Source: Fidelibacterota bacterium (GTDB lineage: Bacteria; Fidelibacterota; UBA2242). Taken from it: 22,155 nt of DNA. The translations under genes were made by a program, and so were the position numbers. Each line of letters starts with the position of its first letter. The stretch's first letter is position 1. The DNA lies in NCBI GenBank assembly GCA_049975265.1, contig JBNGDF010000032.1, positions 1-22,155 on the forward strand, written 5' to 3'. Below, piece after piece: positions 442-19,757 of this stretch. Under the pieces are notes generated by a model, which searched no databases, was not told where the DNA came from, and saw only the letters and a list, made by a program, of their open reading frames with translations.

Positions 442-2112
442 ATGGCAAAGAAAATCAACCGCAGGGAATTCATCAAAGCCGGGACGCTGGCGGGACTCGG
501 TGTTGTGGTCGGCTGTTCCGTGAGAAACCGCTTCGATCTGATCATCCGCAACGGGCTGGTTATTGACGGCAGTTCGCCGGCGATCTATCCCGCCGATGTG
601 GGCATCAGACGAGATAAAATCATCACCATCGGGGATCTGGCAAATGCCGGTGCCGATCAGGTTATCGATGCCGCCAACCGGATCGTCTGCCCCGGTTTTA
701 TTGACATTCACACCCACACCGACACCGAACTGCTGGTCAATCCCCGGGGCGAGAGCAAAATCCGCCAGGGAGTCACCTCGGAGATCAGCGGCAACTGCGG
801 CTCCTCGCCCTTTCCGCTGAATGAAGAGGACAGCCGGGCTCTCTGCAATCGATTAAAAGAGCGCTACGGCATCTCCACCTCCTGGCAAACCGCCGCTGAA
901 TTTCTCGCCGCCATCGAAAAGGCAAAGCCCTCTCTCAATTACGCCACTTTCACCGGTCACGGCGATCTGCGCGCCTACGTCATCGGCAAAAACGACGTGC
1001 AGCCGACATCCGCTCAACTAGAGGAGATGAAACGCGTACTGGCAGAAACCATGGAAGCGGGCAGCCTGGGGCTCTCCACCGGTCTCGAATACGCCCCCGG
1101 CAGCTACGCCAAAACACCCGAACTGATCGAGCTCTGCAAGGTGGTCAAAGCATATGACGGCGTCTATGCCACCCATATGCGCAACGAGGACGATACCGTG
1201 GAAGAAGCCATTGAGGAGGCGCTGGAAATTTGCCGCCAATCCGGCGTCAACCTGGAAATCTCCCATCTGAAAGCCTGCAATCAGTCCAACTGGCACAAGG
1301 TTGACCACATGCTGGCGATGATCCAAACCGCTCACGATCAGGGTCTGCCGGTGCACGCCGATCGCTATCCCTACAATGCCTGGGGTACGGGACTATCGTC
1401 GTTTCTGCCGCTCTGGTCCCGGCAGGGCGATACGGAGGATATTCTGCAACGACTGCAGAATAATGCCGATTTACCGAAGATAAAAGCCTATACCGAGAGC
1501 CGGGGCAGGCGCATCGGCGGCTGGGACAGAGTGGTCATCAGCAACTGCCGCTCGGAAAAAAATAAACTCTACGAAGGTAAATCCATCCGGGATTGCGTCG
1601 CAATGACCGGCAAGGAGCCCTTCGAATTCATCCGCAACCTGTTAATTGAAGAGCGCACCAACGTCAGCGTAATCGGCTTTGCCATGGACGAAACCAACCT
1701 GAAAAAGGTACTTGCCTCGCCGCTGGTAATAATCGGCTCCGACGGCAGCGCCGTGGCGCCCTACGGAAAGCTGGGCGAAGGCAAGCCCCATCCCCGCTTC
1801 TACGGCACCTTTCCCCGAGTGCTGGGTAAGTACGCCCGGGACGAAAAGGTCTTCGATCTGATCACCGCCGTCCGCAAAATGACTAGCATGCCCGCTGACA
1901 AACTCGATCTGAAGCAGCGCGGCTATCTGCACAAAGATTACTTCGCCGATATCGTCATATTCAATCCCGAGACCGTGATTGATAACGCTACCTTCACCGA
2001 TCCGCACGAGTATCCCACCGGTATTGAATATGTCATTGTCAACGGCAAAGTGACCATTGCAAAGGGCGAACACACCGACGCTTTCGCCGGAAGGATTCTC
2101 CGGCATGGCTAA
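442..2112 (+). CDS. N-acyl-D-amino-acid deacylase (D-aminoacylase family amidohydrolase) with Tat/lipoprotein signal
   Basis: Motifs PGFIDIHTHTD, GNCG, YATHMRNE, ISHLK, GSDG, PHPRFYGTFPRVLG and ADIVIFNP are typical of the family. N-terminus has twin-Arg RREFIK, a hydrophobic stretch and VVGC. SD-like GGGGAA at 431-436. Confidence 0.9.
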   Translation: MAKKINRREFIKAGTLAGLGVVVGCSVRNRFDLIIRNGLVIDGSSPAIYPADVGIRRDKIITIGDLANAGADQVIDAANRIVCPGFIDIHTHTDTELLVNPRGESKIRQGVTSEISGNCGSSPFPLNEEDSRALCNRLKERYGISTSWQTAAEFLAAIEKAKPSLNYATFTGHGDLRAYVIGKNDVQPTSAQLEEMKRVLAETMEAGSLGLSTGLEYAPGSYAKTPELIELCKVVKAYDGVYATHMRNEDDTVEEAIEEALEICRQSGVNLEISHLKACNQSNWHKVDHMLAMIQTAHDQGLPVHADRYPYNAWGTGLSSFLPLWSRQGDTEDILQRLQNNADLPKIKAYTESRGRRIGGWDRVVISNCRSEKNKLYEGKSIRDCVAMTGKEPFEFIRNLLIEERTNVSVIGFAMDETNLKKVLASPLVIIGSDGSAVAPYGKLGEGKPHPRFYGTFPRVLGKYARDEKVFDLITAVRKMTSMPADKLDLKQRGYLHKDYFADIVIFNPETVIDNATFTDPHEYPTGIEYVIVNGKVTIAKGEHTDAFAGRILRHG

Positions 2113-3004
2113 TACACCGTATAAATTCTGGGTTCGGACCTTTCAGATCATCACCCTGTTGCTGTTGATTTTTCTGATTATCAGCACCTTCATTCCGCAA
2201 ATCAGTGAGTTTCCGCCCGGCGAATATCCCGGCGCCGCCAACCGTCTGATCCATATTCTGCATCTCAATCGCTTTTATGACTCCCCTATCAATGCCCTGC
2301 TTTGGGGAGTCTTATCTCTGAGTATCATTGCCGCTATCTTCCTGAAAGGAATTCGCTCACCGCTCCAGAAAATCCTGCACCTGCTGCTGGCGCTCTGCTT
2401 CATCGTCATTGCCATTGAAAAAAGCAGCAACCGGCGGTTTTTCATGACTCTCCGGGAGGGGGAGACGGTGCGTTTTTCGGAATTTACAAAATCGGCAACA
2501 GCCAAACATGACTGCAGGCTCCAGCTGTTACAGTTTGAAATTCAATATCACGAGAACAGGCGCACCCCCAGAGCCTTTATCAGTCACCTGCTGATCGACG
2601 AACGGGACACCGTGCGGCTGGCGGTCAATAAACCGCTGGCAATCGGTCATTACCGTCTATATCAGAATGCCTACGACCGGGAGATTCTGTTCTATCTGAG
2701 CATCAATGACCGGGAGTATGCCGTAGCGCCGGGCGATACGGTTTTTCACGGAGCCGTCGAATGCATCCTGGAAGACTTCGACCACGCCGAACGGGTTTTC
2801 AATCTGAAAGTTGACGGACAGTACTATCCTGTCGCGATGCTGAAACCGCTCAGGATTGGGGATTTGGAGCTTGTCATCAAACCCGGCAAAGCCGTTTACA
2901 GCAGCATCATCGAGGTGGCAGAGGTGCGCTGGACCAAACTGCTGCTGTTGCTTGCCCTTCTGTATATGGTCGTTCTGGCGCTTGCTTTCCGGCGGCGGAA
3001 ATAG
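2105..3004 (+). CDS. ccsB: Cytochrome c biogenesis protein CcsB/ResB-like (system II), compact form
   Basis: Three N-terminal hydrophobic segments with STFIPQ (cf. ResB GTxIPQ) and a His in TM3 (ILHLLL), the soluble-domain motif LAVNKPLAIGHYRLYQNAY (cf. VNxPLxxxGxxxYQxSY), and a C-terminal TM followed by RRRK. ATG 2105 overlaps the upstream stop and is preferred over the track start at 2057. Confidence 0.72.
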   Translation: MANTPYKFWVRTFQIITLLLLIFLIISTFIPQISEFPPGEYPGAANRLIHILHLNRFYDSPINALLWGVLSLSIIAAIFLKGIRSPLQKILHLLLALCFIVIAIEKSSNRRFFMTLREGETVRFSEFTKSATAKHDCRLQLLQFEIQYHENRRTPRAFISHLLIDERDTVRLAVNKPLAIGHYRLYQNAYDREILFYLSINDREYAVAPGDTVFHGAVECILEDFDHAERVFNLKVDGQYYPVAMLKPLRIGDLELVIKPGKAVYSSIIEVAEVRWTKLLLLLALLYMVVLALAFRRRK

Positions 3005-7097: not shown

Positions 7098-7130
7098 CTA
7101 TTGGCAAACAGTCTGAAAGGAGCCCGGACT

Positions 7131-7883
7131 TTGGAAATAACTCTCTTGATTATTGCCCTGGTTGTCTACGGAATTTCCCTCCTTTTGTATCTCCTGCAGA
7201 AATCTCGCCCGGCTTATCTGCTGCTGCTGGCGGCGTTGGCTCTTCATTTCGGCGGGCTGGTGGCGCGCTCGGTAATCGCCCGGCATCCGCCCTTTACCAA
7301 TATGTACGAAACCTTTGTCCTGTTGCCATTTTTAGTCGGTTTGCGGACGGTGTTTTGGAAAGTGCAATTCAATGACCGTTTCCGCAAAATCCTCATCGGC
7401 GCTATAATGGTCATCCTCCTAATTGCCCTTATATTGCCGCGGTCAATGAAGATTCCGAAGCCGCTGATGCCGGCGCTGAACAGCGTCTGGATGTACATTC
7501 ATGTCCCGGCGTATTTCTTCGGCTACATGGCGATGATCATTGCCGCCGGTTATGCACTGCTGATTCTGCTGAAAAAGGAAGCAGTGGTGCCGGAAAACAT
7601 CGTCCGGCAGATGGACAACGAGGTTAAAATCGCCTTTTTCTTTCTGACGGTCGGCTTGATCACCGGCGGTATCTGGGCGTATGTCAGCTGGGGAAATTAC
7701 TGGGCCTGGGACCCCAAGGAGACCTGGGCGCTGATCAATATTCTGGTGCTCGCCTTCTACTTTCACCTGAATGTCGCCACCAAACAGAAAAAAGCGGTGG
7801 TCGTGGTGATTGCGCTGCTCTCCATCGCCTTTACATATTGGGGTGTCAGTTTCATCCTGTCGGGATTGCATAGCTATGCGTAA
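7131..7883 (+). CDS. ccsA: Cytochrome c biogenesis protein CcsA/ResC (system II heme delivery and ligation)
   Basis: WWD motif WAYVSWGNYWAWDPKETW, HPPFTNMYE, PALNSVWMYIHVP and C-terminal GLHSYA, with multiple TMs. TTG 7131 follows SD AGGAG (7118-7122) and is preferred over 7101. Confidence 0.93.
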   Translation: MEITLLIIALVVYGISLLLYLLQKSRPAYLLLLAALALHFGGLVARSVIARHPPFTNMYETFVLLPFLVGLRTVFWKVQFNDRFRKILIGAIMVILLIALILPRSMKIPKPLMPALNSVWMYIHVPAYFFGYMAMIIAAGYALLILLKKEAVVPENIVRQMDNEVKIAFFFLTVGLITGGIWAYVSWGNYWAWDPKETWALINILVLAFYFHLNVATKQKKAVVVVIALLSIAFTYWGVSFILSGLHSYA

Positions 7884-8048
7884 AATCCATTTCACAAATC
7901 CGTTTTTACTAACACATTCTGTTTGATTTGGAAATAAATAATTTTTAATGTTAAATTGAAATTAGGATATGAAATAAAATCTTGAATATGGAAGAGAAAT
8001 CTTGTTGAAAAATGTAACATCGCTAATGATCAAAAATGAAAAAAAGAT

Positions 8049-8525
8049 ATGGACCAGTTAATACTTTTTAATAAGGATAAAACGAGTTTTTTTACGATAA
8101 AAGAGGCTAGTGTCTGGGCATCTAATTATTTGAATCGAAAGGTAACGACTTCTAATATATCTTATTTAATCCAATACGGAAGAATTAACAAATATGGAGC
8201 AAACGGAAATGTATTGATTAAAAAAGAGGATCTAAAAAATTATTATGACTCATTAGACAACGGTAAAAAGTACCTGAAGAAATTCGGAGATGATCTTAAC
8301 TGGCATTTGTCTTTTTCAGAATATAAGGAATCAGAAAGAACCAAACACGTTCACAGACTCCATCCTTATAAAGGTAAATTTATTCCCCAACTTGTCGAAT
8401 ATTTTCTCGATACTCATACAGATGAATATAAAAAAGATGTTTACTTTAATAAAGGTGATATCGTACTGGATCCGTTTTGCGGAAGCGGTACTACGTTAGT
8501 ACAAGCAAATGAATTGAATTATTGA
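8049..8525 (+). pseudogene. Truncated amino-type (N4-C/N6-A) DNA methyltransferase with N-terminal HTH-like region
   Basis: HRLHPYKGKFIPQLV and SAM-binding motif I VLDPFCGSGTTLV. The ORF stops about 7 codons later, with no catalytic (S/D/N)PPY motif and no continuation in other frames. Confidence 0.75.
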
Positions 8526-8548
8526 TTTTTACATGAGGATAAAGTACA

Positions 8549-8749
8549 ATGAAGACTTTTAAAATATCTTTAGTTAGAAATTATATTATTGACATAGAAG
8601 CAAAAAATGCAAAGGATGCAAAAATATACGCTGAATATTATCTAGGTGATTGTCCTGACCTTTCAAGCAAGAGAGATCGCATAGATAAAAACTTTAACAT
8701 ATTTAATATTAAATCGATCTATAATGAGGCAAGTGAAATTATAGATTGA
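8549..8749 (+). CDS. Small hypothetical protein (66 aa) in the AT-rich island
   Basis: SD GAGG at 8535-8538, tightly packed between neighbours on the same strand. Confidence 0.65.
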   Translation: MKTFKISLVRNYIIDIEAKNAKDAKIYAEYYLGDCPDLSSKRDRIDKNFNIFNIKSIYNEASEIID

Positions 8750-8759
8750 TAGGTATGAT

Positions 8760-9683
8760 ATGGTAACAAAAGCAGATTTACTCTGTGAAGAATTTTTAAA
8801 AAAGGCAAAACAACTGAATACAAATGTTGAACCTATTAAAGTTCTTAAGTCAAGAGTATATCAAATTGCAGAAGCTAATGTACTAATAAGAGCGGCATCA
8901 AAGTCAAATAAGAGTGGGAGATATTTTTTTGGTATTAATTATATTACAATTGAAGAAATTGCAAATCTCGATAATCCGTTTATTGCTTTTATATGTGGCT
9001 CAATTGAAAACACCCTAATTGTTCCTGCTCAATTATTCTTTAATAATCTCTCGAATATAAGTCATGATAGAAATGGTGAGTATAAAATCCTTATTGATGA
9101 AGATTTAAATCTCATATTAAAGGGGCGGAGTAACAAAATTGAATGCAATAAATTTATAAATGCCTGGCAAATGTTACTTGAGCCCTTTAAAAGCAAAGAA
9201 CCTAAAAATACAGCAGAAGAAAGTCTGCATTCTGTAGTACAGGGTAGGATTATAGAAATAGGAAATATTAGAGGCTATAGAACGTACTGTCCAGATTTTT
9301 CAAGGCATTTCAACAGACGGAAAATTTCAGAGATTATATCATTACAAAAGTGCCCTCAACTCCAGTTTTCAGATTATAATGTTCTAAGAAAAATTGATGT
9401 ATTATGGTTCAGAGAAAAGGGTAGAAATTACATTCCAGAATACGCATTTGAAGTAGAAATTTCAACTGGTACTTGGTCAGGAGTAGGAAGACTAGCTACA
9501 TTAATTGACTATAGTAATGTGAAACTATATGTAATTTCTAATGACAAGAGACGGTACTCTCAAGTAATGCATTCTTTTTCTGAATTTGAAAGTAGATATC
9601 ATCACATTTTAACAGAATATATTGGTGATTTATATTCAGCAGAACTTCATTTGAAAGAATTGAGATATAAAATTGGTTTATAA
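8760..9683 (+). CDS. Putative PD-(D/E)xK-fold restriction-endonuclease-like protein
   Basis: 307 aa, AT-rich. C-terminal half has HSVVQGRIIEIG...IDVLWF...AFEVEISTG..SGVGRL, a pattern seen in restriction-endonuclease-like domains. The N-terminal ~140 aa are unassigned. Confidence 0.6.
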   Translation: MVTKADLLCEEFLKKAKQLNTNVEPIKVLKSRVYQIAEANVLIRAASKSNKSGRYFFGINYITIEEIANLDNPFIAFICGSIENTLIVPAQLFFNNLSNISHDRNGEYKILIDEDLNLILKGRSNKIECNKFINAWQMLLEPFKSKEPKNTAEESLHSVVQGRIIEIGNIRGYRTYCPDFSRHFNRRKISEIISLQKCPQLQFSDYNVLRKIDVLWFREKGRNYIPEYAFEVEISTGTWSGVGRLATLIDYSNVKLYVISNDKRRYSQVMHSFSEFESRYHHILTEYIGDLYSAELHLKELRYKIGL

Positions 9684-9699
9684 CTCAAGAATCACACAA

Positions 9700-9822
9700 G
9701 AATTATGGAACTTTCTCGGAAATGATGGTACCTATTCGGAACTGTTGGACTGCTTTGAAAGAGCCGGCATTGAGCTCAGACCGGAAATAGATGCCTACTT
9801 TAAAAAGTTTAAAAACAATTAG
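9700..9822 (+). pseudogene. C-terminal remnant of a type II restriction endonuclease (resembles the TdeIII family)
   Basis: Hand translation gives ELWNFLGNDGTYSELLDCFERAGIELRPEIDAYFKKFKNN*. There is no SD/ATG and the frame is closed upstream by TGA at 9661-9663. Family assignment is recalled similarity (EFWDFLGG..Y..LL..FE.VGIELRPEID.YF), not a search result. Confidence 0.6.
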
Positions 9823-9837: not shown

Positions 9838-11178
9838 TTGAATAAAAATCTAATATTCTGGTCAATCGTACTACTGGTCAGTTTTACATACACCAGCGCC
9901 CAGCAAGCCGGTGAACATGCTCTCGGCAGCCGAAAATACGATGATTACGAAAAACCGGAGGTCTGCAAGAGCTGCCATACCAATATTTATCAGCAGTGGC
10001 GGCAGGCGATGATGTCACAAGCCTTCACCCACCACTGGGACGAGATCGAGTACTTTGAGCTGGCGATACCGCACAGCGAAAAAGACCCTTTCTTCAAAGC
10101 CACTGCCGACGGCTGCAACGGTTGCCATGCCCCGCTGGCGTATTTAGCCGGCGATGTCCCACCACCGCGACCGGAGCAAAAATCCCGCGCCAACGAAAGC
10201 GTCAGCTGCGATCTCTGCCATACAATCACCGGGATTGACGGCGACCCGGTTAATTTCAACTGGATTTCCGAACCGGGGCGTGTCAAATACGGCGCCAAAG
10301 AGGGACTCGTGTCGCCGCATCACATTACAAAATTTAATGAAACCTACACCCGGGCGGAATACTGCGGAACCTGTCATAATGAACGGAATCCTTTCGGAAT
10401 CGACGTGAAATCGACGCAGACTGAATGGGCGGAGGGGCCCTATAGTGCTGAGGGCGTGCCCTGTTTCGTCTGCCACATGCCCAAAGCCAAAGGGCGCAGC
10501 GCATCCATGGCAGAAGAGGGTATGGTGGCTCAGCATATTTTCCTCGGCGCCCACAACGAAGCCAAGCTCAAAAGCGCCATCGAGATTTCCATTCATCCCG
10601 ACGAACGTGAGATTCCCTACGATGGCGTGGTGACTTTGCAGGTGGAGCTGTTCAATGCCAAAGCCGGGCACAAAATCCCCACCGGCTCCGTGGAAGACCG
10701 GATTCTCTGGCTGGATGTCCGGGCGGTGGACGCCGAAGGCAAAGAGTACCATCTGCCCGTTGACAAAAAGGGCTTTGAGGGCGAGGAATACACCATCGCC
10801 GCCGACGAACTCGCCTACGCCGATATGGGCATCCCCCTGGGCTTGAAAAATTTCAGGGGCGTTCAGCGGGATGGTGTTCCGGTGGGCAACCGCATTTTCC
10901 GGATGCCTTACTTCGACGAGAACGGCATTATGACTATTCAGCAGTGGAATACCCGCAGCCTTGGCGTGGATTACCGGATCGGTCCACGGGAAACCAAGCT
11001 GGAAACCTTTACATGGGAAATGCCCGATGACATTGCCTTCGGTGAAGTCACCGTGACCGCCCGCCTGAACTATCAAAAACTGGTCAAGCCGGTGGCGGAT
11101 TTCCTGAAAGTGCCGGCGGAGGAGAGTGAAATCATTCTCATGAATAAAGCCTCCACCAACATCGAGGTTTATGATTAA
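9838..11178 (+). CDS. Periplasmic pentaheme c-type cytochrome with C-terminal non-heme domain
   Basis: Five CxxCH motifs (CKSCH, CNGCH, CDLCH, CGTCH, CFVCH) and a Sec signal peptide ending TSA-Q. The C-terminal ~200 aa contain NAKAGHKIPTGS. TTG start after AAAGG. Confidence 0.9.
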   Translation: MNKNLIFWSIVLLVSFTYTSAQQAGEHALGSRKYDDYEKPEVCKSCHTNIYQQWRQAMMSQAFTHHWDEIEYFELAIPHSEKDPFFKATADGCNGCHAPLAYLAGDVPPPRPEQKSRANESVSCDLCHTITGIDGDPVNFNWISEPGRVKYGAKEGLVSPHHITKFNETYTRAEYCGTCHNERNPFGIDVKSTQTEWAEGPYSAEGVPCFVCHMPKAKGRSASMAEEGMVAQHIFLGAHNEAKLKSAIEISIHPDEREIPYDGVVTLQVELFNAKAGHKIPTGSVEDRILWLDVRAVDAEGKEYHLPVDKKGFEGEEYTIAADELAYADMGIPLGLKNFRGVQRDGVPVGNRIFRMPYFDENGIMTIQQWNTRSLGVDYRIGPRETKLETFTWEMPDDIAFGEVTVTARLNYQKLVKPVADFLKVPAEESEIILMNKASTNIEVYD

Positions 11179-11188
11179 GGAGCATTGT

Positions 11189-12373
11189 ATGAATTTCCGC
11201 AAAATCTTATTTCTCAATATTTGCCTGGCGGTCCTATTAATCGGTCAATCCGCTCTGGCAATACCGGCGTTTGCCCGGCGCTACAAATTTTCCTGCAGCA
11301 CCTGCCATGATCCCTTTCCCCGGCTGAAAGATTACGGCGATGAATTCGCCGGCAACGGCTTTATCGAGCCCAACGAGGAGAAAGAGCGGGATTATATCTC
11401 CGCCGGCGACGACAAACTCTGGCTGAACCGCGATTTTCCCATCGGCGTTCGCTTCGACGCCTTCGCCCTGCTGGAAACCAAAGGCGCTATTGAAAAGGAC
11501 CTGCAGACGCCCTACGGTCTGAAGCTGCTGTCCGGCGGTACACTGTACAAAAAGATCGGCTATTACTTCTACTTCTATATTTACGAACGCGGTGAGGTCG
11601 CCGGGCTGGAGGATGCCTATATTCACTTCGATAATGTCTTCAACAGCAACCTCGATATCATGGTCGGGCAGTTCCAGACCTGTGATCCGCTGATGAAGCG
11701 GGAACTGCGGCTGAGCTACGAGGATTATCATATCTACAAAACTCAGATCGGCGAATCCGGGACGAATCTCGCCTATGACCGGGGCGTGATTCTGGCTTAC
11801 GGCATCGCAAAAACCGGCACCGATATCATCGCCATGATCACCAACGGCAACGGCATTCCCGAAGCCGGAAGCAATCTCCGCTTTGACAGCGATCCCTATA
11901 AAAATATCGGTCTGCGCGTCGCTCAGGGCGTCGGTGAGAATATCGGCATCGGCGGATTTTATTACCGCGGCGAAGAGGCAAAATTGAACGGTGCAACGGT
12001 CATCATTGATACCAGCAACGTGATCCAATATTTCGGACCGGATATGGTCCTGAATCTTGGAAAATTTGCTTTTACCGGCCAGTACCTGATCCGGATGGAC
12101 TCGAATCCGACCTTTAGCGCCAATCCCGACGAAACCAAAACCGCCGGTATCTGCGCCGAGCTGGTTTTTGCACCCAGGCTGGATCAGTCAAATTTTTACT
12201 GGACCCTGCTCTATAATAATGTCGAATCCGATATCGCGGCGCATAATTATCATACTGTCACGTTGAGCGGAACCTATCTTATGGCGCGCAATCTGCGTCT
12301 GATCGCCGAATATATTCACGACCTGGAAGCGGAGAATAATCTATTTATTCTGGGGCTGGTGTCGGGATTTTAA
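11189..12373 (+). CDS. Cyc2-like monoheme cytochrome c fused to an outer-membrane beta-barrel
   Basis: Signal peptide ending ALA, then IPAFARRYKFSCSTCHDPFPRLKDYGDEFAGNGF, matching the Cyc2-type pattern PxFARxxxxxCxxCHxxxPxLxxxGxxFxxxG[FY]. The remainder shows amphipathic aromatic beta-strands and a terminal Phe. SD AAGGAG at 11177-11182 supports ATG 11189. Confidence 0.8.
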   Translation: MNFRKILFLNICLAVLLIGQSALAIPAFARRYKFSCSTCHDPFPRLKDYGDEFAGNGFIEPNEEKERDYISAGDDKLWLNRDFPIGVRFDAFALLETKGAIEKDLQTPYGLKLLSGGTLYKKIGYYFYFYIYERGEVAGLEDAYIHFDNVFNSNLDIMVGQFQTCDPLMKRELRLSYEDYHIYKTQIGESGTNLAYDRGVILAYGIAKTGTDIIAMITNGNGIPEAGSNLRFDSDPYKNIGLRVAQGVGENIGIGGFYYRGEEAKLNGATVIIDTSNVIQYFGPDMVLNLGKFAFTGQYLIRMDSNPTFSANPDETKTAGICAELVFAPRLDQSNFYWTLLYNNVESDIAAHNYHTVTLSGTYLMARNLRLIAEYIHDLEAENNLFILGLVSGF

Positions 12374-12471: not shown

Positions 12472-13650
12472 TCACCCGCCCCAGGTCACGTAGGTCTCCA
12501 AAGCCTGGTCCAGCACCTTCACCAGCCGGCTGATCTTGTACTTCGTCACATTGATCGCCGGCATGAGGCGCAAAACCGTCTTGTGCGTGCAGTTCAGCAA
12601 AACCCTTTTCTTCAGGCATAAGCGGACAATTTCCGCCCCGGGAACTTTCAGCTCCATTCCCAGCATCAGACCAATCCCGCGGATTTCTTTGATTACGGCG
12701 TATTTGGTTTTTAAGCCCTCCAGCTTTTCCCTGAGATATTCACCCATCTCCGTCGCATTCTCCAGTAGATTTTCATCGGAAATCGCCTTTAATACGGCGA
12801 TTCCGGCAGAACATGCCAGGGGATTTCCGCCAAAAGTGGAACCGTGATTGCCCGGTTGTAATACATGACAATGCTCACGCTTCACCACAAAAGCACCAAT
12901 CGGTACGCCGCCACCCAGCGATTTCGCCATGGTCAGCAGATCGGGCACCACCTCATAGTGCTGATAGGCAAAGAGTTTTCCCGTACGCCCGATCCCCGAC
13001 TGTACCTCATCCAAAACCATAAGTGCATCGTACTGATTACATAATTCCCGGGCAGCCTGCATAAATTCCGCCGTAATCGGTACGATTCCACCTTCACCCA
13101 GAACCGGCTCAAACATCACCGCCGCCACCGAATCGTTCATCATCTTTTCCAGCATAGCGATATTGTTGGCTTCGCAGTATTCAAAACCGCCGGGCAGCGG
13201 ATCGAAGCCATCGTGATAGACCGGCTGACCGGTGGCGGTGACCGCCGCAATCGTCCGTCCGTGAAAGGAATCTTTCAGGGTAATGATCGTTTTCTTATCG
13301 GGATTGCGTTTGCGAATCAGCTTAATGGCGCCTTCGTTGGCTTCGGCGCCGCTGTTGCAGAAAAACACCTGTCCATCAAAGGTACTCTCAATGATCCGTT
13401 TTGCCAAATCGCCCTGAGCATTGTTATAATAAACATTCGGTACATGGATAATCTCATCGATTTGCCGATGAAGAGCCGTGACAATCTTGGGATGGCAGTG
13501 TCCGAGATTACCGGCTCCGTATCCGGGGAAAAAATCGAGGTATTCCCGACCCTTATCGTCCCACACCGACATGCCCTGACCCCGGACAATGGTGATCGGA
13601 AGCCGGCTATAGGTATTCAGCACATATTTATCGAATAATTTCTGATCCAT
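12472..13650 (-). CDS. argD: Acetylornithine aminotransferase
   Basis: FFCNSGAEANE, SFHGRT, DEVQSGIGRTG, PLP lysine in MAKSLGGG, HGSTFGGNPLA, and operon context. Confidence 0.95.
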   Translation of the reverse strand: MDQKLFDKYVLNTYSRLPITIVRGQGMSVWDDKGREYLDFFPGYGAGNLGHCHPKIVTALHRQIDEIIHVPNVYYNNAQGDLAKRIIESTFDGQVFFCNSGAEANEGAIKLIRKRNPDKKTIITLKDSFHGRTIAAVTATGQPVYHDGFDPLPGGFEYCEANNIAMLEKMMNDSVAAVMFEPVLGEGGIVPITAEFMQAARELCNQYDALMVLDEVQSGIGRTGKLFAYQHYEVVPDLLTMAKSLGGGVPIGAFVVKREHCHVLQPGNHGSTFGGNPLACSAGIAVLKAISDENLLENATEMGEYLREKLEGLKTKYAVIKEIRGIGLMLGMELKVPGAEIVRLCLKKRVLLNCTHKTVLRLMPAINVTKYKISRLVKVLDQALETYVTWGG

Positions 13651-14521
13651 TTCTCAATATCTCCGTTCCTATTCCCTCACGGGTAAAAATTTCCAGCAAC
13701 AACGAGTGGTCAATGCGACCGTCCACAATATGCCCTTTATTGACGCCGAACTTCAGGGCGTTCAGGCAGGAGGTCACTTTCGGAATCATCCCTCCCTGAA
13801 TAATGCCTTCGCTAATCAGCCGTTCGGCTTCAACGCGGGTCAGCGTACTGATAACACTCTTCTTGTCAGCGGGGTTCCGCAAAATGCCCGGCATATCCGT
13901 CAGATATACCAATTTACGGGCGCCGATAGATGAGGCAATATCGCCGGCGACCACATCGCCATTGACATTAAAGGTCTGCCCCTCATCCCCCACCCCGATG
14001 GGTGCGATGACCGGAATTTTACCCTGCTCCAGCAGTCGGTTAAGCACCGGCGCATTGATGTAGCGCACACTGCCCACGTAGCCGATATCCACCGTCTTGC
14101 CATCCACTTCGGGCATCATTTTATCCACCCGGATCAGACCCCTGTCCAAGCCGTATAATCCCACGGCATCGCCATCCATCTTGTTCAGTAAATTGACAAT
14201 CTGGGAATTGATCTTATGGGCAAGAATATCCTCCACCAGATCCATGGTTTCGCGATCAGTTACCCGCAAACCATTGACAAACTCCGCCCGGCTGCCGCGT
14301 TGCTGCATGGCTTCCGTAATAGCCGGTCCCCCGCCATGGACAACGACCGGATGCCAGCCGACAAATTTCATAAAGACAATATCCATCAGCACTTCATTCA
14401 TCAAATTATCGTCGGTCATAATGCTGCCGCCGAATTTGATGACGATCTTCTTACCATGAAAAGCCTTGATATAGGGCAGGGCTTCGATCAGGACATCCGC
14501 TTTATTGATAATTTCTCGCAT
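13628..14521 (-). CDS. argB: Acetylglutamate kinase
   Basis: LIEALPYI, VIKFGGS, VVHGGGP, GLRVTD, FNVNGD, GGMIPKV. ATG 14521 follows SD GGGAG and is preferred over 14566. Confidence 0.96.
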   Translation of the reverse strand: MREIINKADVLIEALPYIKAFHGKKIVIKFGGSIMTDDNLMNEVLMDIVFMKFVGWHPVVVHGGGPAITEAMQQRGSRAEFVNGLRVTDRETMDLVEDILAHKINSQIVNLLNKMDGDAVGLYGLDRGLIRVDKMMPEVDGKTVDIGYVGSVRYINAPVLNRLLEQGKIPVIAPIGVGDEGQTFNVNGDVVAGDIASSIGARKLVYLTDMPGILRNPADKKSVISTLTRVEAERLISEGIIQGGMIPKVTSCLNALKFGVNKGHIVDGRIDHSLLLEIFTREGIGTEILRNGSEIIR

Positions 14522-14534
14522 AATTTCCGCTCCC

Positions 14535-15743
14535 TTAGGTATGATATTCCGCATTGATTCTGACATAATCGTAGGAGAGGTCCGTCGTATAAACCGTCGC
14601 CGATTCTAAACCTGTATTGACGGTGAGGACTATCTCCAGTTCCGGTGGCGCCATCAGCTGCTTCAGCACAGGCTTATCCAGCCGAACCGGATTGCCCGCC
14701 TTGTAAATATAGCTGCCGTTGATTTTCAGATCGGTCCGGTCCGGGTCGAAATCCACGCCCACCATGCCGGCGGCTGAGAGAATCCGTCCCCAGTTGGGGT
14801 CCTGACCAAACAGTGCCGTTTTTACCAGCGCCGAATTGGCGATGCCAAACGCCATTTTCCTGGCATTGGCAAAACTATCCACCTGTTCCAGTCGAATCGC
14901 CACGAACTTCGTCGCCCCTTCTCCGTCCCGGACAATCGCTTTTGCCATTTCCTCCGTTAACCACATCAGCGCCTCCCGAAACAGAGCGGCTTCGGGAGTA
15001 TCGTCCTGAATCGGCGGATTGTGCGCCTGCCCGTTTGCCATGATCAGCGCCGTGTCGTTGGTGCTGGTATGACCGTCCACGGAAATCATGTTGAACTGTT
15101 TTTCCACACATTCGGTGAAAATCCGGTTCAGCAATGCATGATCAATGTCCGCATCAGTGGTCACGAAAGCCAGCATGGTCGCCATATTGGGCTGAATCAT
15201 GCCGGACCCTTTCGCAATCCCGCTGATGGTCACCTCAATACCCTGAATGTCAATTTTCACGCCAAAACTTTTCTCTACCGTATCAGTGGTCAGAATCGCT
15301 TCGGCACAACCAAAACCGCCGTCCTCTGACAGCTGGAAAGATAGCGCTTCGATACCGTTTCGCATTTTTTCCATATCAAGTAGCTCACCGATGACCCCGG
15401 TACTGGAAGCGAGAATGAGCTCTTGCTGAACGCCGGTTTTTTCAGCCAGCATCCGGATCGTGGTGCGGGTATCCGCCAGCCCCTGTTGACCAGTCCCGGC
15501 GTTGGCGTTACCGGAATTAATGATCAGCGCCTGAAGCAGATTGCCTGTCTTTTTCAGCGACTCCATGGCGACCAGCAGCGGTGCGGCTTTGACCACATTT
15601 TGGGTAAATTTGACTACACTCTTCGCCGGCACAGCACTCTGTATGATACACAGGTCTTTGCGTTTACGTTTGAAACCCGCCCGCATTGCTGCGGCGGTGA
15701 ATCCCTGCGGATCCGTTATTTTGGGATTTTGGATAAATTTCAT
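14535..15743 (-). CDS. argJ: Glutamate N-acetyltransferase / ornithine acetyltransferase
   Basis: NSGNANAGTG, STGVIG, ILTTDT, AKGSGMIQPNMATML (autoproteolysis site), STNDT, DGEGATK, DPNWGR, INAEYHT. Confidence 0.97.
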   Translation of the reverse strand: MKFIQNPKITDPQGFTAAAMRAGFKRKRKDLCIIQSAVPAKSVVKFTQNVVKAAPLLVAMESLKKTGNLLQALIINSGNANAGTGQQGLADTRTTIRMLAEKTGVQQELILASSTGVIGELLDMEKMRNGIEALSFQLSEDGGFGCAEAILTTDTVEKSFGVKIDIQGIEVTISGIAKGSGMIQPNMATMLAFVTTDADIDHALLNRIFTECVEKQFNMISVDGHTSTNDTALIMANGQAHNPPIQDDTPEAALFREALMWLTEEMAKAIVRDGEGATKFVAIRLEQVDSFANARKMAFGIANSALVKTALFGQDPNWGRILSAAGMVGVDFDPDRTDLKINGSYIYKAGNPVRLDKPVLKQLMAPPELEIVLTVNTGLESATVYTTDLSYDYVRINAEYHT

Positions 15744-15753
15744 CGTTGCTCCG

Positions 15754-16776
15754 TCAGTTTAGTCCAAGGGTTTCATCCAATCCCATCATTACATTCATGT
15801 TTTGAACCGCCTGTCCCGAGGCGCCTTTGATCAGATTGTCAATGGCGCTCAGGAGGATCAGCCGTTTCCCGGAAATCACCATGCCGATATCGCAGAAATT
15901 CGTCCCGGCGACATGCTTGATTTCAGGAATCGCACCGCTCTCCAAAACCCGCACAAAGGGTTCATCCAGATACTGTTTTCGATAAAGGTCCTCCAGCTCA
16001 GCCACCCTTGCGGACCGGACAAGTTCCGTATAGATCGTATTGTAAATACCCCGCGTCATCGGCACCAGATGGGGTACGAAGGTAATATCCACGGTTTGAC
16101 CGGCTATTTTACCGAGCTCCTGTTCGATCTCCGGTTCGTGTTGATGGGATGCGACTTTATAAGCCGCCACATTTTCGTTACATTCCGGGAAGTGGAACGC
16201 CGGTCTGGGCGTCTTGCCTCCGCCGGAAATGCCGGTTTTGCTGTCCACCAGGATTGCGTCGGTTCCGATCAATCCCGCCTGCAGCGCCGGCATCAGCGCC
16301 AATGCAATCCCCGTCGGGAAGCAGCCCGGATTTGCGACGGTATTCGTCTGACGAATCTTCTCCCGATTGAATTCGGGTAATCCGTACACAAAGGCGGGCA
16401 GATTTCCTTTATCCAAATGATTCACGCCATAGGCATTTACATATTGCTTTTCATTATCCAGCCGATAATCGGCGCTGAGATCAATGATCTTCTTCCCGTA
16501 TCGCAGGAACTCCGGTACAATCTCCATACTCGTGCGGTGCGGCAGACCGAAAAAAATGACGTCACTTGCTTCCGCAATTTGCGTAACGTTAATCGCAACG
16601 CATTTTTGATCGCAGCGCCCTTTCAGCGCCGGAAAGAGCTCCGAATAGGGTCTTCCCACATCCGAACGCACCGCCAGATGGGCGATCTTCACCAGCGGAT
16701 GGCGCAGTAAAATTTTCACCAGCTCGAATCCGGTATATCCGGATGCACCGACAACCGATACCCTGATATCACTCAT
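15754..16776 (-). CDS. argC: N-acetyl-gamma-glutamyl-phosphate reductase
   Basis: VGASGYTG, IDLSADYRL, ANPGCFPT, HQHEPEI, IDNLIKGASGQAVQNMN. True start is MSDIRV at 16776, overlapping the argH stop. Confidence 0.96.
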   Translation of the reverse strand: MSDIRVSVVGASGYTGFELVKILLRHPLVKIAHLAVRSDVGRPYSELFPALKGRCDQKCVAINVTQIAEASDVIFFGLPHRTSMEIVPEFLRYGKKIIDLSADYRLDNEKQYVNAYGVNHLDKGNLPAFVYGLPEFNREKIRQTNTVANPGCFPTGIALALMPALQAGLIGTDAILVDSKTGISGGGKTPRPAFHFPECNENVAAYKVASHQHEPEIEQELGKIAGQTVDITFVPHLVPMTRGIYNTIYTELVRSARVAELEDLYRKQYLDEPFVRVLESGAIPEIKHVAGTNFCDIGMVISGKRLILLSAIDNLIKGASGQAVQNMNVMMGLDETLGLN

Positions 16777-17971
16777 AGTACAGCACTTTCGATTTTTCAT
16801 ACTGCTTGCCGATCTGACGGTAGGCTTCGCGGAAGGGCACACCCTGCTGCACCAGCTTATAAGCCTTTTCAGCAGCATACAGCTCCTCCGTCATGGCAAC
16901 TTCGCAATTTTCCTCGATGACTTTCAGATTCCGAAAAATCAGACTGGTCACATGGATCGAATCCAGCACCGTGGCAAATCCCCGAATGACCGCCTCCTTG
17001 GTCAGCTGAATATCCCGGTGGTAGCCGGAGATCAGATTCACCGTGGTGTTTTTCATCTGTATTTCATAGACAAAAATCTCGTGGTATTTACCCCGCAGCA
17101 GTTCCAGTACATCGGGATTTTTCTTCTGCGGCATAATGGACGACCCGGTCAGAAATTCATCGGGCAGAATAAAGTAGGCGATTGAGGGCAGCGTAAAGAG
17201 CACCAGATCGCTGGCGAGTTTATTAATATCCAGCATCACCTGACTAAGTACCGACAGAACAAACGCCTCAAATTTTCCACGACTATTCTGGGCATAGATA
17301 GGATTTTCCTGAGTTTTCGCAAAACCCAACTCGGCGGTAGTCATCTCCCGGTCCAGGGGCAACGGAATCCCATAGCCGGCGCCGGTTCCCAGCGGATTCT
17401 GATCCACCAGTCTGATAGCCGCCTGCAGCAGGTCGAGATCATCGGTAAACGCCGCTTTAAAGGCGTTCGCCCAGAGCCCCACACTGGAGGGCATGGCTTT
17501 GCGGGTATGGGTATACCCCGGCATGGGAATTGTGCCAAACGTCCTGATAAAATCCTCAATATGACCGGTAGTCTCCCGCAGCATTTCCAGACATCTTCGC
17601 AATTTCACCTTACTGTAAAGACGCAAAGCGGTCAGCACCTGATCGTTACGGCTGCGACCGGTGTGAATCTTTTTCCCCGCTTCACCAATTTTCTCGATCA
17701 GGAAATTCTCAATCGCCGTGTGACAGTCCTCGTCTTCAAGAGCGATGGTAAATTTGCCCTGTCTGTCCAGCTCAATTATCCGGTCGAGTCCCTGTAAAAG
17801 ATCAGCCGTTTCTGCTTCACTTAGAATCCCGATCTTCCCCAGCATCGCCGCATGGGCTTTGGAAGCAATGCAATCATAATACACCAGCTCCTTATCAAGG
17901 ATATAATCCTGCCCGACAGTAAATTTTTCAATCTCCTTATCAAGATGCTTTGTCTTTTGCCACAGCTTCAT
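16769..17971 (-). CDS. argH: Argininosuccinate lyase (short, about 400 aa)
   Basis: MKLW start, [45 protein letters not shown]. Confidence 0.95.
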
Positions 17972-19229
17972 GACCACCCTCCTTTTTACGCCACTGATAG
18001 GGCATTTTATCTTTCAGGACAATGTGATGCGCCTTTAGCCGGATCGCATTGATTTTGATAAATCCTTTGCAATCCACCGCATTGTAGTTGCCCTCAACAT
18101 CCATGCTCGACAACTCCTGATCGTAGAGTGAGGTCGGTGATTTCCGACCGATAACACTTACATTTCCTTTGTAGATCGAGAGATACACCGTCCCGTCAAT
18201 CTTTTCCTGGCTTTTCTCAAAGGCATGCATCAGGAAATCCATCTCGGGAGAGAACCAAAAACCGTTGTAGATCAGCTCGGAAAATTTCGGTGCGAGCATA
18301 TCCCGGATGTGCATGACCTCCTTGTCCATGGCGATGCCTTCCAGGTCGCGGTGGGCTGCCCAGAGAATCGTTGCGCCGGGCGATTCATAGACGCCCCGGG
18401 ACTTGATCCCCACGAAGCGGTTCTCCACCATATCCACCCGACCGACACCGTTTTTACTGCCGATCTCATTGAGATACATAAAGAGCTCCAGAGGATCGGT
18501 CTTTTCCACACCCTCGGTCTGATTCGCCACCCGGATCGGAAAACCGTCCCTGAATTCAACCTCCAGAATCGTCTCCTCATCAGGCGCATATTTCGGGTGC
18601 ACCGTTTTACTGAAAATATCCTCCCAGGGTCGGAATTCAGGATCCTCCAAAATACCGGCTTCATGGCTGATGTGCATCAGATTATCGTCTTCACTATAGG
18701 ATTTTTCTATAGATGCCTTGACCGGAATGGCATACTTTTTGGCATAGGCAATCATGTCGCTGCGCCCTTTGAATTCCGCCAGGAATTCCGGGTCCTTCCA
18801 GGGTGAAATCACCTCTATTTTCGGGTTCAGGGCATAAAAGGCAAATTCAAACCGGACCTGATCGTTGCCCTTGCCGGTGGAACCGTGCGCGACCTTGTTG
18901 GTCTTTTCCAGGGCGGCAATCTCCACGTGCCGTTTGGCAATCAACGGTCGCGCCAGCGCCGTTCCCAGCAGATAACGCCCCTCGTAAATCGCATTGCCCC
19001 GCAGCGCCGGATAGATATAGTCCATGACAAATTCTTCCTTTAAATCTTCGATATAGACTTTCGAAGCACCGGTTTTCAGCGCCTTTTCACGCACCGCCGC
19101 AAAATCCTCGGTCTGACCGACATCGGCAACATAGCAGATCACATCGTAGCCCTTGTTGCACAACCACTTTAGTATTACGGACGTATCCAGTCCGCCACTG
19201 TATGCAAGTACGACTTTTTCCTTTTTCAT
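17940..19229 (-). CDS. argG: Argininosuccinate synthase
   Basis: [56 protein letters not shown]. Confidence 0.97.
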
Positions 19230-19283
19230 CGTTCTCCTTCTTAAAATTTTGGTAACGGGGTTAATTGGTGAAGGAGCCCGGAC

Positions 19284-19757
19284 CTAAATTCGGCCGCGCA
19301 GCTCCGGCAAACGGGTCACGAGCAAGTCACGCAACTGCCCGTGCGAAACACCTTCGGCTAAAATGAGTAAAACCGTATCATCACCGGCAATGGTGCCCAC
19401 AATCTCTTTCAGACCGTTCCGGTCGATAATGTGGGCGACACTGGGAGCAAATGACGGCAGGCATTTGATGATAGCCAGATTATGAGAAAAGGCGACAGAC
19501 TGCACTGTGTGAAGCGGGGAGCTCTCCTGCAAATGAGTGTAGTTTGAGGACAACTCATTTGGTATTGAATAAATATGCCCTTTCTCATCATCGGGGATTT
19601 TGATGATTTTTAGTGCAGAAAGGTCTCTGGATAATGTGGCTTGGGTAGTTGCAAACCCCCGGACTTCCAGCATCGAGCGCAATTCTTCCTGACTGGAAAT
19701 TTTAACACTTTCCAGAATTTCCCGAATGGCTCTCTGTCTGTCGACCTTCTCTCTCAT
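19284..19757 (-). CDS. argR: Arginine repressor
   Basis: SSQEEL, TQATLSRDL (winged helix) and GTIAGDDT (arginine binding). Confidence 0.96.
   Translation of the reverse strand: MREKVDRQRAIREILESVKISSQEELRSMLEVRGFATTQATLSRDLSALKIIKIPDDEKGHIYSIPNELSSNYTHLQESSPLHTVQSVAFSHNLAIIKCLPSFAPSVAHIIDRNGLKEIVGTIAGDDTVLLILAEGVSHGQLRDLLVTRLPELRGRI

Follow-up and report, generated by a model that had tools for sequence, protein, structure and literature searches.

Cyc2 proteins, fused monoheme cytochrome-porins of the outer membrane, serve as marker genes for iron oxidation. The family includes A. ferrooxidans Cyc2, Mariprofundus Cyc2PV-1 and Leptospirillum Cyt572, and its members are recognised by the motif AXPXFAR[Q/K][T/Y] after the signal, a CxxCH heme site, a PXL motif four residues downstream of it, a length of more than 365 residues and an OprP-like barrel of 16 strands (PMC8406198). 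The heme is placed at the periplasmic mouth of the pore (Keffer 2021, PMC8406198) and divergent Cyc2 proteins are called the most uncertain part of the family (PMC8406198). Homologues in metagenome-assembled genomes (MAGs) of KSB1, Calditrichota and Krumholzibacteriota have been taken as a sign of new iron oxidisers (PMC9769843), a reading tied to the clade considered here by phylum only. That clade is represented by gene B of a 22,155-nucleotide stretch (the window, an entire contig, JBNGDF010000032.1) from a genome of 2.86 Mb and 95.3% completeness (GCA_049975265.1), the closest named relatives of which in homology searches are Marinimicrobia/Fidelibacterota MAGs. Gene B directly follows gene A, which encodes an exported pentaheme cytochrome c. 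The clade is common and occurs in fermenters showing no chain for Fe(II) electrons, and therefore offers a concrete two-gene test of divergent Cyc2 function.

The nearest precedent for the pair is PtdAB of bacteria from marine oxygen-deficient zones, in which a pentaheme whose C-terminal part is a beta-sandwich, a homologue of Thermochromatium tepidum c552, is likewise followed by a porin (bioRxiv 10.1101/2023.11.21.568154). PtdB is set apart from gene B by its description, since the accessible text presents it as a porin only and leaves heme unmentioned; the novelty of our pair would be lower if PtdB bears a heme. The ptd operon continues with ptdC-G, including tetraheme and decaheme genes, which have no counterpart in loci of the pair. 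Besides the pair itself, the 866 open reading frames (ORFs) in 80 such loci include one tetraheme and zero decahemes. MccSep/ExtKL of G. sulfurreducens is a polysulfide reductase that requires a His/Cys239-ligated heme 2 and the selenocysteine (Sec) Sec325 (PMC13510729). It has in common with our pair five CxxCH motifs, a helical cap with an Ig-like stem, a GH-x-x-P-x-G loop and a clustered porin gene, that of ExtI (PMC13510729, PMC5877670). Its partners ExtM-P are absent from loci of the pair, and no Cyc2 motif was found in 120 MccSep loci, 41 of them at least 4 kb long. The predicted whole-chain fold of gene A is that of T. tepidum c552 (PDB code 5ZE8), which has His and Cys where gene A has Met59 and Lys191. 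PHC of cable bacteria belongs to the same fold family but is without a nearby porin gene in the accessible account (PMC11976967). In MtrAB and MtoAB a periplasmic multiheme gene also adjoins the gene of an outer-membrane barrel; however, gene A has five hemes and is no decaheme wire, and the barrel of gene B is small, with 16 strands and its own heme motif, as opposed to a large, heme-free barrel.

A description of this pair was not found in the literature on cyc2 and ptd that was covered, mostly without subscription papers and supplements, which agrees with an earlier note, made from the sequence alone, that had singled the pair out as under-described. Each component belongs to a known kind, the porin to the Cyc2 family and the pentaheme to the PHC fold, and what appears to be new is the ligand set of the pentaheme. 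The two genes form a strictly conserved module, kept together in many uncultured bacteria, most of them anaerobes. We favour, with a probability of about 0.4, the reading that this module is self-contained and that a periplasmic oxidant receives, through it, electrons drawn from a reductant outside the cell, rather than its being an MtrAB-like wire.

The heme-porin and the pentaheme

Gene B (11189..12373, forward strand) encodes 394 residues ending in Phe, with a predicted outer-membrane barrel. Its ATG at 11189 lies 10 nucleotides after gene A, and this gap (11179..11188, forward strand; GGAGCATTGT) carries a GGAG ribosome-binding site; another in-frame ATG, at 11171, falls inside the end of gene A. 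After the predicted signal, which for both genes was read from the sequence and the structural model rather than from a predictor, the protein reads A-I-P-A-F-A-R-R-Y-K-F-S-C-S-T-C-H-D-P-F-P-R-L, with the CxxCH at C36-H40. Compared with the published consensus (PMC8406198), this signature (AIPAFARRY, CSTCH and PRL; 11258..11326, forward strand) agrees with Cyc2 in every sequence feature save one residue, an Arg at the Q/K position, and gene B is filed accordingly as a Cyc2-family protein. Its fixed pentaheme partner and its occurrence in fermenters lacking terminal oxidases are further departures from the characterised members. The mature N-terminus IPAFARRYKF resembles that of Cyt572, YPGFARKYNF (PMC13741234), and suggests, as a lead only, membership of Cluster 3.

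The model of gene B has 16 barrel strands (pLDDT 76.5), with low confidence, below 50, in the heme region (residues 19-57). The top fold matches are 16-strand porins, led by OprP (2O4V; Z 24.6, root-mean-square deviation (rmsd) 3.1, 298 residues aligned), whereas chain B of the Mtr complex 6R2Q gives only Z 11.3 and rmsd 9.8. Searches of Pfam, NCBIfam and PDB sequences assigned no family to gene B, no Cyc2 model being matched, and its Atlas clusters are unnamed. A protein search scored 7996 candidates, of which 3758 passed. Among the best 120 of these 3758, the CxxCH is present in 119, the exception lacking its N-terminus, and the C-terminal residue is Phe in 115 and Tyr in five. In the 77 loci with the motif, the variants ARRY (54), ARKY (10) and ARQY (2) occur. 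Conserved positions of the barrel include 19 basic and 24 acidic residues. No fusion of A to B and no lengthened porin was seen among 6684 candidates of 691-2000 residues, an absence of little weight. What the earlier note had seen in gene B, namely a single Cyc2-type heme motif behind a signal and a likely barrel ending in Phe, is borne out, the barrel as a prediction, as is the 10-nucleotide spacing. Of the three findings that the note named as refuting its proposal (no predicted barrel, a CxxCH that homologues do not conserve, and lack of synteny elsewhere), none applies.

Gene A (9838..11178, forward strand) is of the PHC / c552 / ExtKL fold, with a helical heme domain followed by a C-terminal Ig-like domain (approximately residues 246-446). 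It starts at a TTG preceded by the Shine-Dalgarno sequence AGAAAGG and encodes 446 residues, opening with a hydrophobic, signal-like helix. The CxxCH motifs lie at residues 43, 93, 124, 176 and 209 and there is no further Cys. No other of the 2614 called ORFs of the genome has at least five CxxCH motifs, and the probability of five arising by chance at this length is approximately 7e-18. The exported pentaheme with an additional C-terminal domain that the earlier note had seen is supported. The structural model (pLDDT 89.5) has one whole-length fold match, 5ZE8 (Z 27.9, rmsd 3.0 over 338 residues; Foldseek E 1e-19; identity approximately 21-25%), and hhalign gives a probability of 99.9 with the 5ZE8/MccSep fold. 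The score on the ExtKL model NF040886, 52.7 bits, is far below the cut-off of 250, a Sec-type control (L126) reaching 545.8, and that on the DmsE/MtrA model is 19.9 bits against a cut-off of 192.2.

Four residues distinguish gene A from MccSep. The reference set for this comparison began with 120 metagenome loci with a Sec motif, which yielded 51 five-heme products, 46 of them distinct and 40 aligned. Met59 (10012..10014, forward strand) is kept in 120 of 120 close relatives and faces a His that is invariant in MccSep (40 of 40) and also present in 5ZE8; the alignment makes a His-to-Met swap of a heme ligand likely, the replaced His presumably being a ligand of heme 4. Methionine ligation favours higher potentials, and Met59 would raise those of the hemes. 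Lys191 (10408..10410, forward strand), also kept in 120 of 120 close relatives, is aligned by HMMER with the Cys of 'LCQT' in 5ZE8 and is predicted to lie on the distal side of the catalytic heme 2. Its register against Cys239 of MccSep is uncertain by about one helical turn, as this Cys is displaced several residues in the MAFFT and hhalign alignments. Met224 (10507..10509, forward strand) is invariant in the alignment, sits in a loop missing from MccSep and 5ZE8, and is a candidate alternative ligand of heme 2. Switching between Lys and Met ligands occurs in TsdA, and heme 2 of gene A may have a labile Lys or Met ligand. Ser284 (10687..10689, forward strand) stands where MccSep has its catalytic Sec325, opposite Sec in 40 of 40 MccSep sequences, with hhalign in agreement, and is Ser in 120 of 120 relatives of gene A. 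A role for gene A as an MccSep sulfur reductase was considered and is ruled out by the Ser in place of Sec, the absent Cys ligand and the NF040886 score. Because the set of Met59, Lys191, Ser284 and Met224 differs from the His, Cys and Sec of MccSep, gene A, as judged from its residues, uses an enzyme scaffold yet belongs outside MccSep. It adds a Lys/Met/Ser branch to a fold in which one characterised enzyme was found, MccSep, and that enzyme uses Cys and Sec.

Two other groups of pentahemes were noted. The subfamily of L101, L102 and L104-L107 has Pro in place of the Sec and, in the stretch from heme 4 to heme 5, two extra Cys residues (SCGNLTICDTDFEW); it is likely a His/Cys branch akin to c552. 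In oxidase-bearing genomes of the phylum, L108-L120 encode pentahemes that share the fold and look like lipoproteins, their genes lying in a conserved cluster that also encodes large secreted proteins.

A strictly conserved pair and its hosts

Pairing was assessed from both sides. In a B-anchored set, the best 80 of 228 GTDB stretches encoding a relative of gene B, gene A is immediately upstream in 79 loci and the remaining locus has 59 nucleotides of contig there. In an A-anchored set of 40 loci from a second genome set, gene B follows in 39 and the remaining contig ends at that point. In these two sets, the synteny across genomes on which the earlier note had made its proposal depend is broken only by contig ends. 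No third gene is constant beside the pair in the 80 loci. Within the phylum, a sample of 201 genomes (99 without and 102 with an A-type oxidase; gene B threshold E <1e-70) contains 20 with gene B, 19 of them with an adjacent gene A. The pair is present in 18 of the 99 genomes without the oxidase and in one of the 102 with it, although related genomes are not independent. In a phylum that contains KSB1, 97 of the 167 genomes sampled have gene A, and orthologues are named from Bacteroidales.

The remaining Cyc2-like genes of the phylum have other partners and fall on long separate branches of a quick tree. Those of L082-L093 adjoin small exported proteins, two-component systems, diheme or multiheme cytochromes, Rieske/cytochrome b-like genes or an oxidase operon, by labels read from the sequences, and appear to be several distinct undescribed arrangements. 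The porin of genome G006 (L081:7036-8370) is a fast-evolving member of the porin clade, with an end branch of 2.56, and a pentaheme neither adjoins it nor occurs elsewhere in that genome.

A cluster sister to the gene A family, that of P0245, is named from Dehalococcoidales and retains the Met, Lys and Ser. Fifteen of its 41 members are listed, and all six that are near full length (P0245, P0407, P0408, P0410, P0411 and P0415) have a lipoprotein-like N-terminus, an extra CxxCH fused on at the C-terminus as a sixth heme site and a downstream GMP. Dehalococcoidales cells are not known to possess an outer membrane. From the sequences, the fusion looks as though a sixth heme belongs to the module.

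The gene for the System II heme lyase CcsA (7101..7883, forward strand), the sole PF01578 match in the genome, lies upstream of gene A and is directly upstream in the closest relatives. Among the 80 loci ccsA is present in 21 and ccsB in nine, and in four of five carriers checked the sole CcsA adjoins the pair, the fifth having one there and one elsewhere.

In the present genome no heme-copper or bd oxidase and no NrfD, cytochrome b, MenB or MqnA/D was found. Labels taken from sequence reading and gene order indicate what we take to be Rnf, Mbh and an Mbx-like complex, Hdr-Mvh and FeFe hydrogenases, which would amount to a ferredoxin-based fermenter's toolkit. An Mrp-linked group-4 complex, outside the window at 47918-58716 (reverse strand) of contig C4, has a catalytic subunit the start of which looks Mbx/MBS-like and is separate from the Mbh-like cluster on C20.

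Among 67 carriers surveyed for genome content, 37 lack any heme-copper enzyme and 20 lack a heme-copper enzyme, NapC/NrfH and NrfD together; 19 of these 20 additionally lack MenB and MqnA/D. The cleanest cases are G004, G034, G038 and G082 (88-95% complete), with no quinol-oxidase marker, MenA, MenB or MqnA/D. The only other multiheme found in these four, in three of them, is a soluble or lipid-anchored octaheme (L309:5066-7276, L310:5405-7615 and L311:291-2609; 736-772 residues with a lipoprotein-like start). It was checked as a membrane link in small carriers and discarded, its hydrophobic stretch being N-terminal only.

Genes of antioxidant defence (SOR, SOD, NiSOD, catalase, KatG, Bcp, ferritin, rubrerythrin and flavodiiron protein) flank the pair in 34 of 119 loci, these being the 80 of the first set and 39 of the second after one duplicate was dropped. 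In the first set six such families are found in 21 of 80 loci of the pair, whereas among 40 loci of other cytochromes in the phylum one has them; they occur in none of the 120 MccSep loci, which are mostly short, and in 2% of same-size windows of the present genome. A Pfam scan of 79 of 169 near neighbours in the first set added NiSOD, catalase and KatG. The second, independent set, with 67 of 151 neighbours scanned, has an antioxidant neighbour, mostly SOR, in 11 of 39 loci compared with none of 20 control stretches taken from those genomes. On a FastTree phylogeny of 117 rows there are 14 changes of the label. The antioxidant neighbourhood is a real but partial clue.

Function of the pair

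In the favoured reading a small reduced solute, most likely Fe2+, would enter the pore and give electrons to the Cyc2-type heme of the porin. Gene A, which we infer docks on gene B, would carry them to the catalytic heme 2, where O2, peroxide, NO or a similar oxidant in the periplasm would probably be reduced. Both substrates, like the direction of flow, are put forward on the same conditional footing. An anaerobe at redox boundaries would gain protection in this way and would not conserve energy. A closed circuit is the simplest model because a single heme cannot wire the membrane, gene A has a branched enzyme fold and many hosts are chainless. The pair is often without the respiratory chain normally fed by Cyc2, and would therefore likely serve oxidant defence of the envelope and not growth on iron. 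Obligate pairing, the fold of the MccSep enzyme with invariant residues of its own, the missing electron sinks, the adjoining CcsA, the antioxidant neighbours and the sixth heme of the Dehalococcoidales proteins support this model.

A more specific form is that the pair is a six-heme outer-membrane enzyme unlinked to the electron transport of the cell, taking Fe(II) through the Cyc2 pore and destroying periplasmic O2, peroxide or NO at a Lys/Met-ligated pentaheme. This is possible, if doubtful. Were it true, iron oxidation would shield strict fermenters, many of the 'cyc2' genes counted in sediment metagenomes would be markers of defence against oxidants, not of lithotrophy, and the fused six-heme protein of Dehalococcoidales would be the form suited to cells that have no outer membrane.

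A number of observations weigh against the closed circuit. The present genome has NrfH and MenA, so that a quinol route to the periplasm exists, and a heme-copper oxidase or NO reductase is found in 30 of the 67 carriers, with NapC or NrfD in most. Sixteen carriers that have an oxidase or NrfD likewise lack MenB and MqnA/D, and missing quinone genes in MAGs therefore prove little. Genome G006 retains the porin without gene A. No antioxidant neighbour is seen in 85 of the 119 loci, including all 15 rows of the window's own clade; such neighbours are concentrated in a small number of clades of KSB1 and Calditrichota, and the search was biased to finding them beside the pair, its loci being the source of the queries. 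The 71 upstream regions examined share no regulatory palindrome. Sister pentahemes, too, can have the Lys of position 191 and the Met of position 59. In the literature covered no report was found of O2, peroxide or NO activity for this fold, and the accessible account of the cable-bacteria PHC proposes such activity for globin fusions only (PMC11976967).

The earlier note had seen in the pair a hybrid of Cyc2 and MtrAB that could move electrons across the outer membrane. This part of it is not supported: gene A is unrelated to MtrA-type wires and, because of its branched 5ZE8/MccSep fold and Ig-like domain, is implausible as a structure threading a 16-strand pore; many carriers also lack a recognised inner-membrane partner for a respiratory conduit. 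An outward conduit, fed by NrfH-type or other inner-membrane proteins, by which fermenters would discharge electrons to other cells, humics or soluble Fe(III), is rather improbable. A heme-porin does adjoin a multiheme in carriers that are mostly anaerobes, the present genome has NrfH and MenA whereas its NrfA has an internal stop, and a NapC/NrfH-like match is found in 40 of 68 genomes, some being the pentaheme itself. However, one heme where a 16-strand pore opens to the periplasm leaves the membrane unspanned (PMC8406198), no extracellular cytochrome was found in the loci, heme-copper oxidase, NapC and NrfD are all missing in 20 of 67 carriers, and a Met ligand would favour higher potentials. 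An ordinary energy-yielding Cyc2 iron oxidase, from which the pentaheme would carry electrons through the periplasm to a nitrate pathway or an oxidase, we consider very unlikely. The Cyc2 sequence features, all but one residue, the published reading of homologues in these phyla as iron oxidases (PMC9769843) and the heme-copper superfamily enzymes of 30 of 67 carriers speak for it, but the present genome has a fermenter's toolkit and neither NrfD, cytochrome b nor a heme-copper or bd oxidase, genomes of the phylum that bear an oxidase almost never have the pair, and the other Cyc2-like genes of that phylum lie on long separate branches with other partners.

Two further readings were weighed. 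A channel and enzyme in the manner of ExtI and ExtKL, in which the pore admits a small S, Se or N anion for the pentaheme to reduce, oxidise or disproportionate and the porin heme is an extra electron store, is unlikely, although gene A has the MccSep fold and active-site loop, the best barrel match is the anion channel OprP with 19 basic beside 24 acidic conserved positions, and ExtI, the porin of the ExtKL cluster, has been linked to selenite and tellurite reduction (PMC5877670). The activity of MccSep needs Sec325 and Cys239 (PMC13510729) and gene A has neither; no sulfur-transfer or nitrogen-cycle family recurs among the annotated neighbours, and net reduction requires an electron donor that is apparently missing in many carriers. 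In favour of a channel and enzyme, Lys191 also lines up with the His in the 'HPEFE' of this genome's NrfA, a His that we assume to have a catalytic role. Iron handling, by which the pair would alter the Fe redox state at the outer membrane for uptake or remove Fe2+ against Fenton chemistry, has a low probability also, and it overlaps the favoured reading, from which it differs mainly in purpose. It fits the Cyc2-type heme-porin, and ferritin adjoins the pair in six of the first 80 and two of the next 39 loci, but no Fur-type box was found upstream and neither Feo nor TonB families are among the recurring annotated neighbours.

An nrfH gene followed by an nrfA-like gene with CxxCK lies outside the window at approximately 125300-127250 (reverse strand) of contig C7. 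The latter has an in-frame TAG in a later heme motif, at approximately 126141, and is either a pseudogene or an assembly error. The idea that this genome is quinone-free was dropped once MenA scored above its cut-off.

Flanking sequence of the window

Scans for promoters and terminators gave results at chance level, and Fur, FNR, Rex and CRP boxes are not enriched in the 71 upstream regions. The ccsB/resB-like gene for the heme-attachment partner (2105..3004, forward strand), which adjoins ccsA and the pair in some relatives, is displaced here. Between ccsA and gene A there is an insert of low GC content (approximately 0.30; 7900..9780, edges approximate, forward strand) that we place outside the module. 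It carries a DNA methylase truncated after 158 residues and a 307-residue ORF with no Pfam or NCBIfam family, is absent from the corresponding position in L001 and L003, and looks like a decayed restriction-modification cassette. Downstream, and convergent with gene B, a cluster for arginine biosynthesis with its repressor occupies 12472-19757 on the reverse strand; these names were read from the sequences, with only the aminotransferase family-scanned.

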